Positions 14,251 through 21,255 of a DNA stretch of 29,184 nt are shown here, piece after piece (position 1 is the first letter of the stretch; each line of letters opens with the position of its first letter). The stretch is from Candidatus Fervidifonticultor secundus (GTDB lineage: Bacteria > Sysuimicrobiota > Sysuimicrobiia > Sysuimicrobiales > Humicultoraceae). Position numbers and translations under genes: made by a program. The DNA lies in contig JAVKIP010000027.1 of NCBI GenBank assembly GCA_031459385.1, forward strand, positions 1-29,184. The letters are read 5' to 3'. Under the pieces are notes generated by a model that worked only from the letters and a program-made list of their open reading frames with translations, ran no database searches and had not been told where the DNA came from.

Positions 14251-15924
14251 TCAGCGGTCTCCGCCCCGCGGGCGGACGCGCGGGAGGCGGACAAACGCGT
14301 GCGGTTCGGGCATCTCGCCCACCGGGACTTCCACCACCGTCGGCTCGTCCCGCTCGAATGCCGCACGCAGGATGGCGGTGAGCGCGGCCGGCGACGTCGC
14401 CCGCTGCCCGCGGGCGCCGAACGTCTCGGCCAGGCGCACGAAATCAGGGTTGTGCAGCCGCGTGGCGATGACGCGACCGCCGTAGAGCTCCTGCTGCATC
14501 CGGAGCACGTTGCCATACGCGCCGTCGTTGAACACCACCGCCACCACGCCGATCCGGTGCTGGACTGCCGTGGCCAGCTCTGCGGCCGTGAACAGGAAGC
14601 CGCCATCGCCCGAGATGGAGAGGACCGCGCGGTCGGGCAGCGCTACCTTGGCGCCGAGGGCGGTGGCGAAGCCATAGCCGAGCGTGCCCTGGTAGCCCGG
14701 GGTGATGTAGGTACGCGGCCGGTACACGGGAAACGCGTACCGCGCCATGTAGCCCACCTGGGTCATCTCGTCGACGAAGACGCCGTCGTCGGGCAACGCC
14801 GCACGCATCGCCTGCAGGAACCCGTACTGGGGCTGCACCTGGCTCATGGCCTGCTCGACATCGGCCTTCAGGGCCCGCAGGGCCGCCTCGCGCGAGGCCC
14901 GCACGGGGCTGTGCGCGGCCAGGGCCTGGGACAGGGCGGCCAGCGCCTGGCGCGCGTCGGCCACGATGCCGACGGCAGGTGGGTGGATCCGGGAGATCTC
15001 AAGAGGGTCGATGTCGATCCGGATCAGCGTGAGCCCATCGTCGACGCCCCACTGCGTCAGCGGCCGCAGCAGCCGCGTCCCGACGGCCAGTACCACATCG
15101 GCATCGGCCCACAGCCGCCAGCCGGCTGGCCCGGTCAGCGCCAGGTAGTGGCGGTCGCTCACTGCGCCACGCCCGTGCATGCCCGCCACCACGGGCGCCT
15201 GCAGCGCCTCGGCGACAGCCAGAAGTGCGTCCCCGGCGTCGTCGACACCGCTGCCTACCATAATGAGGGGGCGCTCCGCGCGCGCCAGCAACGCTGCGGC
15301 CCGGGCGACCGCTTCGGGATCGGGCGCGGGGGCTGCGGGCGCCGCGGCTGGGTCCCGCAGCGTCACCGGGGCCTGGTCGGCCAGCACGTCGGTGGGAATC
15401 TCCAGCGCCACCGGCCGTGGCCGGCCCGCGCACAGCTGCTGGAACGCCTCGGCTACGAGGTCGGGCAGCAGCGCCGGATGCTCGACCCGTGCCGCCCACT
15501 TGGTCAGCCCGCGCAGGATCGCCAGCTGGTCCGGCAGTTCGTGCAGGACGCCCAGCCCCCGGCCGATCTGCGCCGAGGGGATCTGCCCGGCGATGCAGAG
15601 GACGCGCGCATGCGCCGCATAGGCGGTGGCGAGCGCCGCCGTGGCGTTCAGGACGCCGGGGCCGGGCACGACCGCGAAGACCCCGGGGCGGCCGGTGGCC
15701 CGAGCGTACCCGAGAGCCATGTAGGCTGCGCCCTGCTCGTGCCGCGTGTGGACGACGCGGATGGCGCCGGCGGCATCGTAGAGGGCGTTGAACAACGCGT
15801 CGTTCTGCACGCCGGGGATGGCGAACAGCTCGGTAACCCCGTGCCGGCGCAGCATCTCCACCAGGGCGCGTCCGCCGGTCATGCGGGTGGCCACCGCCGG
15901 GTCTGCCGCGCGGTCGGAGGTCAC
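14251..15924 (-). CDS. Thiamine-pyrophosphate-dependent enzyme, acetolactate synthase large-subunit-like; start may be ATG 15882
   Basis: MTGGRALVEML, RHEQGAAYMALGYAR, VVPGPG, GTLGYG and the TPP motif GDGGF...VFNDGAYGNV. Confidence 0.9.
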   Translation of the reverse strand: MTSDRAADPAVATRMTGGRALVEMLRRHGVTELFAIPGVQNDALFNALYDAAGAIRVVHTRHEQGAAYMALGYARATGRPGVFAVVPGPGVLNATAALATAYAAHARVLCIAGQIPSAQIGRGLGVLHELPDQLAILRGLTKWAARVEHPALLPDLVAEAFQQLCAGRPRPVALEIPTDVLADQAPVTLRDPAAAPAAPAPDPEAVARAAALLARAERPLIMVGSGVDDAGDALLAVAEALQAPVVAGMHGRGAVSDRHYLALTGPAGWRLWADADVVLAVGTRLLRPLTQWGVDDGLTLIRIDIDPLEISRIHPPAVGIVADARQALAALSQALAAHSPVRASREAALRALKADVEQAMSQVQPQYGFLQAMRAALPDDGVFVDEMTQVGYMARYAFPVYRPRTYITPGYQGTLGYGFATALGAKVALPDRAVLSISGDGGFLFTAAELATAVQHRIGVVAVVFNDGAYGNVLRMQQELYGGRVIATRLHNPDFVRLAETFGARGQRATSPAALTAILRAAFERDEPTVVEVPVGEMPEPHAFVRLPRVRPRGGDR

Positions 15925-16063: not shown

Positions 16064-16183
16064 CTCCCGGCAGCGACCTACTCTCCCGCGCCGTTGCCAG
16101 CGCAGTACCATCGGCCCTGGAGGGCTTAACGACCGTGTTCGGAATGGGAACGGGTGTGGCCCCTCCGGCATAGCCACCGGGAA
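16064..16183 (-). rRNA. rrf: 5S rRNA
   Basis: Minus strand TTCCCGGTGGCTATGCCGGAGGGGCCACACCCGTTCCCATTCCGAACACGG...GATGGTACT...GGGAGAGTAGGTCGCTGCCGGGA. Ends approximate. Confidence 0.97.
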
Positions 16184-16332
16184 TGGACGGCCGATGACCG
16201 GCCGCGACGAAGTCCTGTGCACCGGTCTGAGAGTCGGACTACTGCACCCTCGCAGGGTAGGCTCTCGATCAACGAGCCCCCAGACCGGTCACATAGCGGT
16301 GTTGCAGGCTCCATACAGCTGCCCCTAGAGCA

Positions 16333-19388
<3,056 letters not shown>

Positions 19389-19390
<2 letters not shown>

Positions 19391-19427
19391 CCCGCCCTAG
19401 GAGCAGCTGTACAGAGCCTGACAACAC
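19389..19427 (-). other. 5' arm of the 23S processing stem; pairs with 16299-16336
   Basis: GTGTTGTCAGGCTCTGTACAGCTGCTCCTAGGGCGGG is complementary to CCTGCTCTAGGGGCAGCTGTATGGAGCCTGCAACAC downstream of the 23S. Confidence 0.85.
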
Positions 19428-19480
19428 ATCGTCGTCCCGCCGATCGGATCGATCCGCGGGTCGAGATGTCTTCGTCCGTC

Positions 19481-19497
19481 TTCACTTGTCAAGGTCC
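19481..19497 (-). promoter_or_regulatory. boxA-like rRNA antitermination element
   Basis: GGACCTTGACAAGTGAA, about 90 nt upstream of the mature 23S, resembles the CYTTGAAAACTGAA-type boxA of Terrabacteria rRNA leaders and spacers. Confidence 0.55.
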
Positions 19498-19571
19498 GCC
19501 CCGTCGTCTACACGACGCCGGGTCCCGCCGGGATCGCCGGCCAGGACATCGAGGCATAATGGCCGTGACAC

Positions 19572-19600
19572 AAAAAAGAGGGGATGAGCGAAATCCCCTC
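19572..19600 (-). terminator. Intrinsic terminator inside the 23S-5S leader (attenuator 3:4 hairpin)
   Basis: GAGGGGAT-ttcgctc-ATCCCCTC-TTTTTT: perfect 8-bp stem and 6 U. Confidence 0.85.
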
Positions 19601-19632
19601 CGGGACTGCTCACCGAGCAACCGCCTATGAGG

Positions 19633-19668
19633 TTATCCGGTCGACACCGTCACCCTCGGCAGCAGCAC
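19633..19668 (-). CDS. Putative leader peptide MLLPRVTVSTG in the 23S leader
   Basis: SD GGGAGGG (19674-19680) 5 nt before GTG CTG CTG CCG AGG GTG ACG GTG TCG ACC GGA TAA. Overlaps the 5' arm of the anti-antiterminator. Confidence 0.6.
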   Translation of the reverse strand: MLLPRVTVSTG

Positions 19669-19699
19669 CCAATCCCTCCCTGTGTCCGAGCCACACCTC

Positions 19700-19727
19700 A
19701 TTATAGAGGGGACCTCGGGCTTGTCAA
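19700..19727 (-). promoter_or_regulatory. Consensus sigmaA promoter of the 23S-5S unit
   Basis: TTGACA-16 nt-TATAAT. A 16-nt spacer is typical of rRNA promoters. Confidence 0.9.
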
Positions 19728-19827
19728 CCCTCGTCCCGGCCGGCGTGGGACTCGTCGGGTCAAAGCTCCCCACCCCCGGCCGGTGTGTGCCACCGCCGCG
19801 CGGCGCTGGCGCGCCCGGCCCCGTTGC

Positions 19828-19854
19828 ATTCCGGCGCGCTATACGCGCCGGAAT
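19828..19854 (-). terminator. Perfect 11-bp hairpin at the end of the Lrp/AsnC gene (possible terminator or stabiliser)
   Basis: ATTCCGGCGCG-5 nt-CGCGCCGGAAT, without a U-tract. Confidence 0.4.
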
Positions 19855-20081
19855 CACACCACCAGACAGGTCAGGGTGTCGGCGACTCCCGGTGTCCGCT
19901 GGATGCGGGAGATGACCGTATCGCCCAGGGCGGCCATGTCGCCGGCCTCGGTGAAACAGACGATATCGTAGGGCCCGGTCACCACGTGTACCTCCCGCAC
20001 GCCCTTGATCTTCCGCAGGGCGATGGCCGCCTTGCGTGCCTGACCCGGATGCGCCTTGAGCAGCACGACCGCTGAGACCAC
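19854..20081 (-). CDS. Lrp/AsnC ligand-binding-domain-only protein
   Basis: IKGVREVHVVTGPYDIV...IQRTPGVADTLTCLVV. SD GGAGGTGA. No HTH. Confidence 0.9.
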   Translation of the reverse strand: MVSAVVLLKAHPGQARKAAIALRKIKGVREVHVVTGPYDIVCFTEAGDMAALGDTVISRIQRTPGVADTLTCLVV

Positions 20082-20127
20082 CGCCGCTCACCTCCCGCCA
20101 TGCCTGGAAACGCGCTCGGACAAGCCG

Positions 20128-21255
20128 TCAGGTCCTGCCGCGGCGGGCCCGCCGCGCCCGCCCGCGTCGAGGCGCCCTGGCTGCGCGCCCCCGGACGCGA
20201 ACCCGTCGTCCGGTCCGACCGCCGACCCGGCGCCCGGGGCGGGCTGCCCGGCGGGCAGCACGACGCTGCGGGCGGCCACCTTGACGGCCGCCTGTCCGAC
20301 GCCCCGTTGCGGCGCGCCGCCCCCGCGCCGCACCGCGCCGCCCACCGCGCCGCGCGGCAGCGCGCCGCCTGGCCTTCGCAGCCGGCTTGCGCCTGCGCTT
20401 CGCCGGGGCGGCCTTGGCCTGTGGGCGTGGCCGCTGCCCGGCGGGGGCCGCCGCCCCGCCTTCCGGCGCCGACTCCGCCAGCCCGGGGAGCGTGGTCTGC
20501 CAGAGGGGCTCTTCCGGCTGCCGTCCACCGCCGCGTGGTTCCACCGGCGTCCCGGGCGTAGCGCCGTGATCGGCGCCACCGGCCACGGCGGCCGGCTCCG
20601 TAGACCCGAGCCTGGCGGACTCCTGCGTGGCCGTCTCTGGCGGCGCTTCCTGCGATACGACGTCCGGACGATCCTCCAGCGATGGCTCCTGCCTCATGGG
20701 ACCCAGCACCTCCTCCAGGGCTGCGGCGTACGCGTCGAAATCCGGCTCCGAGAACAGTACGAACCGCACTTCATCGAGCGACGTCCCCTGCATGCCTTCG
20801 ACCACGGCGCGCACGGCCACACGCGCGGCCAGCGACACCGGATAGCCGTAGACCCCGGTGCTGATAGACGGAAAGGCGATCGTCCGCACCCCGTGGTCTG
20901 CAGCCAGCCTTAGGCTGGCCCGGTACGCCGCGGCCAGCAGGTCGGCCTCGCCCTGCCGGCCCCCGTACCAGACCGGGCCCACAGCGTGGATCACGTATCG
21001 GGCCGCCAGCCGTCCGGCACCGGTGATCACCGCCGACCCCGTCGGGCAGCCGCCCTGCTCGGCGCGGATCCGGGCGCACTCCTCCTCGATGGCGGGGCCG
21101 GCGGCCCGACGGACCGCGCCGTCCACACCGCCCCCGCCCACCAGCCGGCTGTTGGCGGCGTTGACGATGGCATCCACCCGCTGGCGGGTGATATCGCCCT
21201 GCACCAGCGCCAGCGTGCGACCGTCGATCGCCCGCCTGATCGGCTCGCGTGGCAT
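20128..21255 (-). CDS. Macrodomain protein (O-acetyl-ADP-ribose deacetylase/YmdB-like) with acidic linker and Arg-rich C-terminal tail
   Basis: VQGDIT, DAIVNAAN, GGGGVDGA, VIHAVGPVW and AFPSISTGVYGYP. The reading frame continues about 190 aa beyond the domain. Confidence 0.9.
   Translation of the reverse strand: MPREPIRRAIDGRTLALVQGDITRQRVDAIVNAANSRLVGGGGVDGAVRRAAGPAIEEECARIRAEQGGCPTGSAVITGAGRLAARYVIHAVGPVWYGGRQGEADLLAAAYRASLRLAADHGVRTIAFPSISTGVYGYPVSLAARVAVRAVVEGMQGTSLDEVRFVLFSEPDFDAYAAALEEVLGPMRQEPSLEDRPDVVSQEAPPETATQESARLGSTEPAAVAGGADHGATPGTPVEPRGGGRQPEEPLWQTTLPGLAESAPEGGAAAPAGQRPRPQAKAAPAKRRRKPAAKARRRAAARRGGRRGAARGRRAATGRRTGGRQGGRPQRRAARRAARPGRRVGGRTGRRVRVRGRAARAPRRGRARRARRGRT

Follow-up and report, generated by a model that had tools for sequence, protein, structure and literature searches.

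How are the amounts of the rRNAs kept in balance when their genes are no longer transcribed together? The textbook account is that rRNA stoichiometry is maintained because 16S, 23S and 5S are transcribed as one unit (bioRxiv 10.1101/705046). The leader described here bears on how the balance might be kept in genomes with unlinked genes. The window, by which we mean the whole analysed stretch of 29,184 nucleotides, contains a 23S rRNA gene (16331..19390; RF02541, 2737 bits) and a 5S rRNA gene (16065..16181; RF00001, 103 bits), both on the minus strand. A predicted terminator/antiterminator switch with a mini-ORF is located exactly where the 23S acquired its own promoter.

Anatomy of the 23S-5S leader

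All leader features lie on the minus strand and are given in the order of transcription. The promoter, TTGACA-16-TATAAT (19700..19727), matches the consensus at 12 of 12 positions and was the only promoter-like site found in 19300-20100. Transcription of the leader probably starts near 19693, and the extreme 5′ end of the transcript, UGGCUCGGACACA (19681..19693), is paired with 19571-19561 in the minimum free energy fold, where it forms the outer 5′ strand of a helix termed P1. The inner 5′ strand of P1 is the Shine-Dalgarno-like GGGAGGG (19674..19680), with its partner CCCCUCU at 19583-19577. Five nucleotides after GGGAGGG begins a mini-ORF of 11 codons, GTG...TAA (19633..19668), encoding MLLPRVTVSTG. 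It lies within P2 (19616..19668), a hairpin of variable length that is supported by folding and by a permutation test, and whose stem contains the start codon, with the stop codon in or near the apical loop.

Segment A, GGUGAGCAGUCCC (19602..19614), which was called segment 2 in a preliminary description of this DNA, is the 5′ strand of P3 in the predicted fold. The 3′ strand, GGGAUUUCGCUCAUC (19583..19597), overlaps both arms of the terminator, and together the two form a 13-bp antiterminator hairpin (the '2:3' pairing, 19614-19583). The intrinsic-terminator-like element (19572..19601) consists of a hairpin of nine pairs at 19601-19577 and six U residues at 19577-19572. It is followed by the outer 3′ strand of P1, GUGUCACGGCC (19561..19571), which was identified from the minimum free energy fold and from duplex tests and is available only in read-through RNA. 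Between the terminator and the boxA-like element, a conserved block, CCUCGAUGUCC, and a GC hairpin that may be boxB-like (19523..19554) were noted by eye in the upstream sequences. The boxA-like antitermination element itself, ACCTTGACAAGTGAAGAC (19478..19495), includes ACCTTGACAAGTG at 19495-19483, and we take it to be a boxA by resemblance. Compared with shuffled sequences, the leader fold of the window is unusually stable (z = -3.5), with none of 200 shuffles equally stable. The promoter, Shine-Dalgarno sequence, mini-ORF, terminator, boxA-like element and 23S gene reported in the preliminary description were all found in the sequence, as was its 13-bp hairpin overlapping the terminator, and both of these structures are conserved among homologues.

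A metatranscriptome from the same study was compared in one run at 80% similarity, and contigs of relatives in it cover the 5′ end of the 23S and the leader up to 19499. A 385-nt contig touches 19569-19590, sharing only 21 letters where at least 31 are needed for bridging. The element is without cover in this run, which has no bearing on its expression. Chemoautotrophic enrichments from hot springs, with metatranscriptomes, are described in PMC11604079.

Distribution of the element and conservation of the mini-ORF

In an order-wide search of 94 genomes with a covariance model, an element of about 115 nt was identified upstream of the 23S in 35. These were the window together with 24 of 33 genomes in one family (f1), and 10 of 22 in a second (f2); the model had no match in the other families (0/23 in f4, 0/12 in f5 and 0/1 each in f3, f6 and f7). 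Another 25 distinct metagenome sequences carry the element, and it was present in 35 of 41 metagenome matches to a reduced pattern consisting only of the terminator 3′ arm, the U-tract and GTGYC, with no Shine-Dalgarno sequence or ORF in the pattern. A 23S lies downstream at 10 of 11 f2 loci and at 17 of the 20 metagenome loci tested. Two metagenome loci (L109 and L144), which had a weak model match and no 23S within 390 nt, were not counted as members.

In f1 and f2 the 16S lies 1.8-29.5 kb upstream in all 11 cases where both genes share a contig, and in f4, f5 and f7 the 16S and 23S are linked in 15 of 15 such cases, with a gap of 154-322 nt. The element is restricted to two families with unlinked 16S and 23S, and the same covariance-model search did not find it in families with linked rRNA operons. 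The association with unlinked rRNA genes made in the preliminary description is supported, in that the element is seen only where the two genes are apart. An exact-pattern scan of one genome per species (185,579 species) gave 36 matches; the model confirmed 22 of them and left 14 unconfirmed. The confirmed matches are labelled Armatimonadota, CSP1-3 or Sysuimicrobiota, or are unclassified, with two labelled Caldilineales and Gemmatimonadales; with a pattern this strict, the scan could have passed over divergent relatives elsewhere. For the element, Rfam 15 returned no match at the gathering score, and none at E values up to 10 in 19391-19860.

Each of the 36 genome sequences has GGAG(G), a spacer of 5-8 nt and a start-like codon, which is GUG in 23, AUG in 1, CUG in 1 and AUC in 11. 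All 11 f2 sequences have AUC where f1 has GUG, and the CUG belongs to G002, a close relative. Non-canonical starts (AUC or CUG) thus occur in 12 of 36 genome sequences and in 2 of 25 metagenome sequences, the latter including one CUG, and with AUC or CUG in place of GUG translation may be weak or absent in f2, in G002 and in one metagenome sequence. The frame runs to 5 codons in 8 genome sequences, 6 in 11, 7 in 14, 10 in 2 and 11 in 1. Regardless of length, it is in frame with one conserved stop in all 36 genome sequences and in all 25 distinct full-length metagenome sequences. Of the genome sequences, 34 have UAA as this stop and 2 have UGA, and the metagenome sample has only UAA, UGA or UAG. 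The preliminary description had proposed conservation in relatives as a check, and the Shine-Dalgarno sequence, start-like codon and in-frame stop are retained in every homologue. The conservation of the element upstream of the 23S in 35 of 94 genomes, and its presence in 35 of 41 metagenome matches, show that it is not due to chance.

The encoded peptides vary freely (MYQSG, MQDSTG, MLLPRVTVSTG and MFGTSSG, for example) and share only a C-terminal Ser/Thr-Gly, the codons of which fall within a conserved RNA stem. No runs of regulatory codons were found in the mini-ORFs of the genome homologues. The Shine-Dalgarno sequence AAGGAGG complements the 16S 3′ end, CACCUCCUUUCU, of the element-bearing genomes. 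The mini-ORF may be translated. A counter-argument is that the Shine-Dalgarno-like strand is fully explained by its predicted pairing with CCCCUC. The idea that the element descends from the 16S 3′ end, or mimics it, was rejected, as in local alignments of three elements with their own 16S 3′ ends 39, 402 and 21 of 500 shuffles were as good.

A promoter of the same type precedes the element in 36 of 36 homologues and scores 12/12 in 31 of them. The distance from the U-tract to boxA is 20-132 nt over 32 measured intervals (20-49 nt in nine measured f2 loci), and these intervals contain no promoter-like site, in agreement with the earlier statement that there is no second promoter ahead of the 23S. 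A candidate second promoter at TTGACAAG (19492) was rejected because this is a boxA motif common to 16S leaders and linked spacers, and no -10 element comes after it. The boxA-like motif ACCTTGACAA is located downstream of the element and also occurs in 16S leaders and in the 16S-23S spacers of relatives with linked operons. In four genomes, the 16S leader has a promoter, a small hairpin and the same boxA, without the element. The sequences therefore support the view that every 23S-5S transcript would have to traverse a leader with a single promoter.

Predicted mutually exclusive folds of the leader RNA

The terminator hairpin (-9.2 to -19.4 kcal/mol) and its U-rich tract are present in all 36 homologues, and the competing hairpin is kept alongside it in all 36 aligned genome sequences. 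P3 and the terminator are mutually exclusive, as GCUCAUC and GGGA are common to both. In P3, 87.8% of cells are paired, with a change from A-U to G-C in six sequences and from G-C to C-G in one. GAUGAGC / GAUGAGC / GCUCAUC of f1 becomes GAUGGGC / GAUGG.. / GCCCAUC in six f2 sequences, and both GAUGRGC copies vary together with GCYCAUC between the families. The U-tract has 5-7 U residues in nearly all 36 sequences, although the P1 strand opposite it is free to vary. The hairpin with its U-tract probably stops transcription. Unpaired stretches are also strongly conserved, namely AUUGG after the Shine-Dalgarno sequence, CAUAC and a NUAA loop.

The new feature of this analysis is the predicted pairing of the transcript 5′ end and the Shine-Dalgarno strand with the terminator 3′ arm and with sequence past the U-tract, which the preliminary description had overlooked. 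We compared cognate with non-cognate duplexes among 24 representatives, and P1 outer is the helix with the strongest covariation support, at a mean of -11.4 kcal/mol for cognate and -8.7 kcal/mol for non-cognate duplexes (reversed controls, -7.0; shuffled controls, -6.6 kcal/mol). Out of 2000 permutations, 0 were as good for P1 outer, 2 for P3, 2 for P2 and 43 for the terminator (T), although these tests ignore relatedness and so overstate significance. The G-C, A-U and G-C pairs of P1 inner, between the Shine-Dalgarno sequence and CCCCUC, are identical throughout the 36 sequences and, as they never vary, provide no covariation evidence.

The remaining pairing of the preliminary description, one that a classical attenuator depends on, joined the start of the mini-ORF (segment 1) to segment 2 over about 19 bp. 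A duplex is predicted in the window at -25.6 kcal/mol, with about 16 bp rather than 19. Such a duplex is possible in 24 of 24 representatives (mean -12.4 kcal/mol), but it has no cognate-specific signal, with 1187 of 2000 permutations as good.

Energies were compared by forcing the terminator fold (T) against the antiterminator fold (AT), by equilibrium folding and over a series of lengths. Among the 36 homologues the two are almost equally stable, the median of AT minus T being +1.2 kcal/mol, with values from -6.7 to +12. Free RNA of the window folds as an antiterminated three-way junction at every length from 120 nt up. In the genus g4, full-length RNA still prefers the terminator fold, by 8-12 kcal/mol. 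The preliminary description had predicted that blocking 19645-19685 would move the RNA from termination to the antiterminator. The reverse was found, as the free RNA is antiterminated and the masked RNA turns to the terminator. Two ribosome masks, one for a 30S subunit and one for a ribosome at the stop codon, shifted the equilibrium in the 36 sequences without a consistent direction.

Possible readers of the proposed switch and comparison with known systems

In the reading that we favor, and to which we give a probability of about one half, the conserved element acts in cis as a leader switch (attenuator) of an unlinked 23S-5S operon, most likely read out by ribosomes. The consensus promoter would initiate an RNA of about 115 nt with two mutually exclusive folds. 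Fold AT would be a three-way junction of P1, P2 (the mini-ORF hairpin) and P3 (segment A with GCUCAUC), in which P1 joins the 5′ end and the Shine-Dalgarno sequence to the terminator 3′ arm, the U-tract and 11-20 nt beyond, so that the Shine-Dalgarno sequence would be buried and the terminator absent. In fold T, P2 would be lengthened by pairing of the Shine-Dalgarno strand with segment A, and the GC-rich hairpin with its U-tract would halt RNA polymerase ahead of boxA. A ribosome or 30S subunit on the strong Shine-Dalgarno sequence and the frame of 5-11 codons would cover strands of both folds, which makes it the likeliest selector, and in this way ribosomes may help to set the amount of rRNA made. 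As to direction, we lean only slightly towards a ribosome that favors read-through, making 23S-5S output dependent on free 30S subunits or active translation, over one that favors termination, which would provide feedback from idle ribosomes. Scarcity of 50S subunits as the trigger is purely speculative. More tentatively, the leader could sense free 30S subunits or ribosomes directly, with the 16S anti-Shine-Dalgarno and the anti-Shine-Dalgarno-like strand of the leader, CCCCUCUUU, competing for the Shine-Dalgarno sequence and so deciding between termination and read-through; this would be a feedback, born at the operon split, that matches 23S and 5S to the supply of ribosomes or 30S subunits.

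The strong conservation of unpaired AUUGG, CAUAC and the NUAA loop would also fit a switch read by a factor other than the ribosome. A ribosomal protein, an assembly factor or a small ligand might bind the three-way junction and shift P1/P3 against the terminator, with the apparent mini-ORF a by-product of structure. The covariation of P1 outer, P2 and P3, the f2 sequences without a canonical start and the complementarity of the Shine-Dalgarno-like strand to CCCCUC are all compatible with this, and protein-mediated attenuators of ribosomal operons are described in the available parts of two papers (PMC1865079, PMC4538822). What it leaves unexplained is the frame, since the start-to-stop spacing is divisible by three in every genome and full-length metagenome sequence over at least five length classes, and the stop triplet changes only to other stop codons. 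The absence of Rfam matches at E values up to 10 also speaks against such a factor, as does the lack of a look-alike in the 23S or 5S of the window; the best E value there was 0.56 (model R1, filters off), giving no support for mimicry of a 23S or 5S site in a test that is crude and blind to structural mimicry. We regard a non-ribosomal reader as improbable.

About equally improbable is a constitutive structural leader with no regulatory role, in which the closed P1, P2 and P3 would protect or mark the pre-23S 5′ end, silence a fortuitous Shine-Dalgarno sequence or be processed by an enzyme such as RNase III, and the hairpin and U-tract would act as a pause or a fixed partial terminator. P1 outer, the best-supported helix, forms only after read-through, the free RNA of the window is a junction without a terminator from 120 nt onward, and processing leader helices appear in the accessible text of PMC10250234 and PMC6582327. 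The need for bulk rRNA synthesis likewise speaks against a strong default stop. A constitutive role is difficult to reconcile with a U-tract kept at 5-7 U residues in nearly all homologues despite its freely varying P1 partner, with a terminator stem in every homologue that covaries with the competing P3, and with folds kept close in energy around a preserved reading frame. The perfect promoter and good terminator that flank a unit of about 120 nt could alternatively delimit an independent small gene, for a small RNA or the mRNA of a micro-peptide, upstream of a separately started 23S. We consider this very improbable, as none of the 32 intervals from U-tract to boxA, some only 20-23 nt long, holds a promoter-like site, covariation ties the RNA 5′ end to sequence past the terminator, the element is absent where the 23S is co-transcribed with the 16S, and the peptide is not conserved.

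If the choice of fold is indeed made by ribosomes, the leader would be a case of attenuation acting on rRNA itself, as a direct ribosome feedback; a full-text literature search found no description of an rRNA-leader attenuator. Among the closest known systems are the trp, his and leu leader-peptide attenuators, which likewise have a promoter-proximal short ORF with a Shine-Dalgarno sequence, an intrinsic terminator (a predicted one in our leader) ahead of the genes under control and an antiterminator hairpin that overlaps it; their upstream strand that sequesters the antiterminator has a possible counterpart here. In this case, however, the target is rRNA rather than enzymes, the mini-ORFs lack runs of regulatory codons, and the peptide is free to vary. 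Unlike in those leaders, the ORF has only 5-11 codons, with about 20 nt between its end and segment A and about 35-45 nt between its end and the terminator hairpin, and there is an extra predicted helix between the Shine-Dalgarno sequence with the RNA 5′ end and the terminator 3′ arm with downstream sequence.

The E. coli S10 leader, with L4, is a ribosomal-protein-mediated attenuator. Others, as far as the available parts of the sources describe them, are the B. subtilis infC leader with L20 (PMC1865079) and the rplJL leader with L10(L12)4 (PMC4538822). The 23S leader resembles the infC, rplJL and S10 leaders in having a terminator/antiterminator switch that would link synthesis of a ribosome component to assembly state, but those precede protein operons and are bound by a protein that recognizes a mimic of its rRNA site, and here our crude test detected no mimicry. 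It also resembles the rRNA antitermination leaders with boxB-boxA-boxC and Nus factors (PMC10250234), being an rRNA operon leader with a boxA-like element downstream at 19495-19478. In this case, the element is upstream of boxA and includes an intrinsic terminator and a mini-ORF, neither of which is a known part of the boxA system. The Helicobacter pylori 23S-5S leader is similarly a long, regulated or processed leader of a stand-alone 23S-5S unit, although its control is described as a cis-antisense RNA with RNase III, and the main text of that paper has no occurrence of 'terminator' or 'attenuat' (PMC6582327, available portion). Finally, antibiotic-sensing leader ORFs such as ermC, B. subtilis yxjB with tylosin (PMC6851288) and the topAI uORF (PMC12121999) are, like the mini-ORF, very short, and ribosome occupancy there remodels the downstream RNA. 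The peptides they encode are conserved and stall the ribosome, and the genes under their control are for resistance or toxins, whereas the leader described here has no conserved peptide and rRNA as its target.

Leader structure and single promoter

The element, a predicted leader switch located before unlinked 23S-5S genes, is real, is conserved and had not been catalogued before. Its most likely reading, to which we assign a probability of about 0.5, is that of a translation-linked attenuator. In the window it lies on the minus strand, where a promoter matching the consensus at 12/12 positions (TTGACA-16-TATAAT, 19727-19700) is followed by a Shine-Dalgarno (SD) sequence, GGGAGGG (19680-19674), a mini-ORF reading GTG...TAA and encoding MLLPRVTVSTG (19668-19633), a 13-bp hairpin (P3, 19614-19583), and a terminator-like hairpin (19601-19577) with a T6 ending at 19572. 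The boxA-like element ACCTTGACAAGTG (19495-19483), the 23S rRNA gene (19390-16331) and the 5S rRNA gene (16181-16065) follow on the same strand. The preliminary description had placed the promoter, SD, mini-ORF, 13-bp hairpin and terminator accurately. The fold of the 138-nt leader RNA beat 200/200 shuffles (z = -3.5), and the Rfam search that description had proposed returned no known family for the leader, either at gathering score or at E values up to 10.

No second promoter had been seen before boxA and the 23S gene, and this holds both in the window, where this promoter and this terminator are the sole sites of their kind within 19300-20100, and in relatives. In an alignment of 36 sequences of the element (A2), a TTGACA/-10 promoter is present in 36/36, with 12/12 consensus positions in 31, 11/12 in 4, and 10/12 in 1. 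Across the 32 measurable loci, 20-132 nt separate the U-tract from boxA (20-49 nt in the 9 measured loci of family f2), and none of these 32 intervals contains a promoter-like site; therefore, all 23S-5S transcription must pass the hairpin and U-tract.

Between the terminator and boxA, a block CCUC(A/G)AUGU(U/C)CC with a GC-rich hairpin after it (19523-19554, minus strand) is conserved in the larger-leader subgroup of family f1 and is possibly boxB-like. Directly upstream of the leader is a gene for a 75-aa stand-alone Lrp/AsnC ligand-binding (RAM-domain) protein (19854-20081, minus strand; PF01037, E 5.6e-14). This gene precedes the element in 20/24 f1 loci, with 55-100% identity (at least 80% in 14 loci), which is unusually high cross-genus conservation for a small protein, and in 0/11 f2 loci. 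Ordinary neighbors on the minus strand are a 375-aa Macro-domain protein upstream (20128-21255) and, downstream of the 5S gene, a thiamine-pyrophosphate enzyme with acetolactate-synthase-like domains (14251-15924).

Distribution and unlinked rRNA genes

A DNA search detected the leader stretch upstream of 23S in relatives, and a covariance model (R1) was built from an alignment of 19 sequences (A1); one unpublished genome (G019) contributes a row to both A1 and A2, and none of the claims made here rests on that row. R1 matched 35/94 genomes of the order, namely 24/33 in f1 plus the window and 10/22 in f2, with no match in families f4 (0/23), f5 (0/12), or f3, f6 and f7 (0/1 each). Each genome has one match, save G037 with two. 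In f2, 23S begins downstream of the element in 10/11 fetched loci, the eleventh being interrupted by a contig end. An exact-pattern scan of genomes of 185,579 species gave 36 matches, 22 of them confirmed by R1, with titles reading Armatimonadota, CSP1-3, Ca. Fervidifonticultor, Ca. Calidihabitans or unclassified, and two reading Caldilineales and Gemmatimonadales. By taxonomy look-up, the named genera with the element belong to the families Humicultoraceae and Kaftiobacteriaceae of Ca. Sysuimicrobiota. The main text of the paper describing this phylum (PMC11604079) contains no use of "23S", "unlinked" or "rRNA operon".

The linkage of 16S and 23S was searched across the order with a query consisting of the 16S 3′ end, spacer, and 23S 5′ end of a linked relative. 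The genes are linked in f4 (7 genomes), f5 (7) and f7 (1), that is, in 15/15 genomes whose 16S and 23S ends share a contig, with a gap of 154-322 nt or one contiguous match, and the spacers of three such operons each hold the same boxA motif. They are unlinked in f1 (7 genomes) and f2 (4), where 1.8-29.5 kb of DNA carrying protein genes separates 23S from a 16S end upstream of it on the same strand. A contiguous 16S-23S match occurred in none of the 41 f1 and f2 genomes that gave any match, not counting the window's own genome, in which 16S and 23S are on different contigs. The element was found only in f1 and f2, the families with unlinked genes, and therefore coincides exactly with the presence of a separate 23S promoter. 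In four genomes the 16S leader contains TTGACA-17-TATAAG, a small hairpin, and a boxA some 40 nt past the -10, and it lacks an SD, ORF and terminator.

In one genome (G031; locus L059, G031:C22, 1656-2763, minus strand) the 16S-23S distance is only 1.8 kb, and two ORFs fit in between on the rRNA strand, one of 203 aa that is methionine sulfoxide reductase-like by eye and one of 160 aa, with the element's promoter directly after them. This arrangement may be near the state in which the rRNA operon first came apart. The 16S 3′ region of 11 genomes (G001, G004, G007, G012, G013, G015, G016, G037, G040, G043 and G051) matches the query as two segments (1-157 and 138-206) about 240-330 nt apart, for example at G004:C2:64187-64655 (L068), which points to an insertion about 50-70 nt short of the 16S 3′ end; unusual sequence is visible at this putative site in G004.

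Competing folds and the mini-ORF

The minimum-free-energy fold of the window leader is a three-way junction of helices P1, P2 and P3, and not the predicted combination of the terminator (3:4) with a duplex between segments 1 and 2 (1:2). In P1, the RNA 5′ end and SD (19693-19674) pair with 19583-19561 (CCCCUC, part of the U-tract, and GUGUCACGGCC; minus strand); P2 is the mini-ORF hairpin, and P3 is the hairpin previously termed 2:3. The alternative fold combines the terminator with P2, lengthened by pairing of the SD strand with segment A, formerly segment 2. A 1:2 duplex is predicted (-25.6 kcal/mol), with about 16 bp instead of 19.

A terminator hairpin precedes the U-tract in 36/36 sequences (-9.2 to -19.4 kcal/mol). 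For P3, 87.8% of the cells of A2 are paired, and A-U is replaced by G-C in 6 sequences and G-C by C-G in 1. At family level, the two GAUGAGC copies and GCUCAUC shift in concert, becoming GAUGGGC, GAUGG.. and GCCCAUC, which preserves both P3 and the terminator. An alignment-free test compared pairing with a sequence's own 3′ strand to pairing with that of another in 24 representatives less than 85% identical. Over 2000 permutations, which take no account of phylogeny and so overstate significance, cognate and permuted energies (kcal/mol) were -11.4 and -8.7 for outer P1 (0/2000 as good), -15.6 and -14.3 for P3 (2/2000), -8.8 and -7.3 for P2 (2/2000), -16.9 and -16.5 for the terminator (43/2000), -11.2 and -11.2 for the invariant inner P1 (743/2000), and -12.4 and -12.5 for 1:2 (1187/2000), which shows no cognate-specific signal. 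Outer P1 controls gave -7.0 kcal/mol with reversed and -6.6 with shuffled 3′ strands, and compensatory examples include GGUCUG/CAGACC vs GCCUG/CAGGC and GCAGUAC/GUACUGC. Because outer P1 needs read-through in order to form, the closed fold of the read-through RNA is itself under selection.

The SD and mini-ORF also proved conserved, as the preliminary description had expected. All 36 sequences of A2 contain GGAG(G) and, after a spacer of 5-8 nt, a start-like codon (GUG in 23, AUG in 1, CUG in 1 (G002), and AUC in 11, all the f2 sequences), with frames of 5 (8 sequences), 6 (11), 7 (14), 10 (2) or 11 (1) codons that all close at the same conserved stop in the apical part of P2 (UAA 34, UGA 2). 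A metagenome scan, with its pattern limited against circularity to the terminator 3′ arm, U-tract and GTGYC, gave 41 matches, 35 of them confirmed by R1, and 28 distinct sequences, none identical to an A2 row. Leaving out two 5′-truncated sequences (L116 and L134) and the divergent L109 (same sequence as L144), which no 23S follows, an SD-like site, start and in-frame stop were found in 25/25 (starts GUG 23, CUG 1, AUC 1; stops UAA 22, UGA 2, UAG 1), and 23S lies downstream in 17/20 tested loci. In two of the 23 with GUG (L119 and L131) the SD-like site is GGGGGG rather than GGAG, and start and frame were read by eye because the script anchored on a later GGAG.

At least five start-to-stop distances occur (15, 18, 21, 30 and 33 nt), each divisible by 3; by our own estimate, rather than a tool's computation, the chance of keeping frame over at least five independent length changes is about (1/3)^5 = 0.004. 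Because the distances are all multiples of three, the stop triplet is substituted only by other stop codons, and the peptide sequence is not conserved, we favor the reading from these sequences that the mini-ORF is really translated and that translating itself, not the peptide product, would matter. Counting against translation are the AUC in all f2 sequences and the CUG in G002 and one metagenome sequence.

The divergent metagenome sequences L109 and L144 (391-528, minus strand) have a low GC content (0.49) and share UCAUCCCCUCUUUUUUGUGCC and the closing helix with the element. In these, AAGGAGAG-AAA-AUG opens a frame extending through the terminator, and there is no 23S within 390 nt downstream. 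They may be distant variants of the element or belong to an attenuator unrelated to it.

Direction of control and comparison with known systems

Termination had been proposed as the default, with a ribosome giving read-through, but folding of the window leader gave the reverse of the predicted outcome: the free RNA forms P1, P2 and P3 without the terminator, and blocking 19645-19685 allows the terminator to form, both at full length and at the decision point, represented by RNA truncated at the terminator stem base, which is what can fold by then. At this length the junction fold minus the terminator fold ranges from -6.7 to +12 kcal/mol (median +1.2), with the junction favored in 10/36. Equilibrium folding showed no consistent shift with a ribosome mask at the stop codon (median +2.3) or with a 30S mask on the SD and start (median +1.5 for P3 minus terminator). 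In one genus (g4) the full-length RNA, too, favors the terminator fold, by 8-12 kcal/mol, and segment A is a good partner for the SD strand; on this folding model, 23S can be made there only if an opener such as a ribosome undoes that pairing. Kinetically, a 30S subunit would reach a strong SD fast, compared to about 1 s for RNA polymerase to get to the U-tract. Since such binding would be fast and rRNA is needed during growth, we lean slightly toward the direction first proposed, in which the ribosome would give read-through.

Full-text literature searches found no rRNA-leader attenuator. The nearest systems are attenuators of ribosomal operons that act through proteins, the boxA antitermination leader, and the leader of the H. 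pylori 23S-5S unit, which has an antisense RNA. The element has the same logic as leader-peptide attenuators, but regulatory codons, a defining feature of those, are absent here, and its 1:2 coupling is putative. It differs further in that its target is rRNA and in having an extra helix, which joins the SD and 5′ end to the terminator arm.
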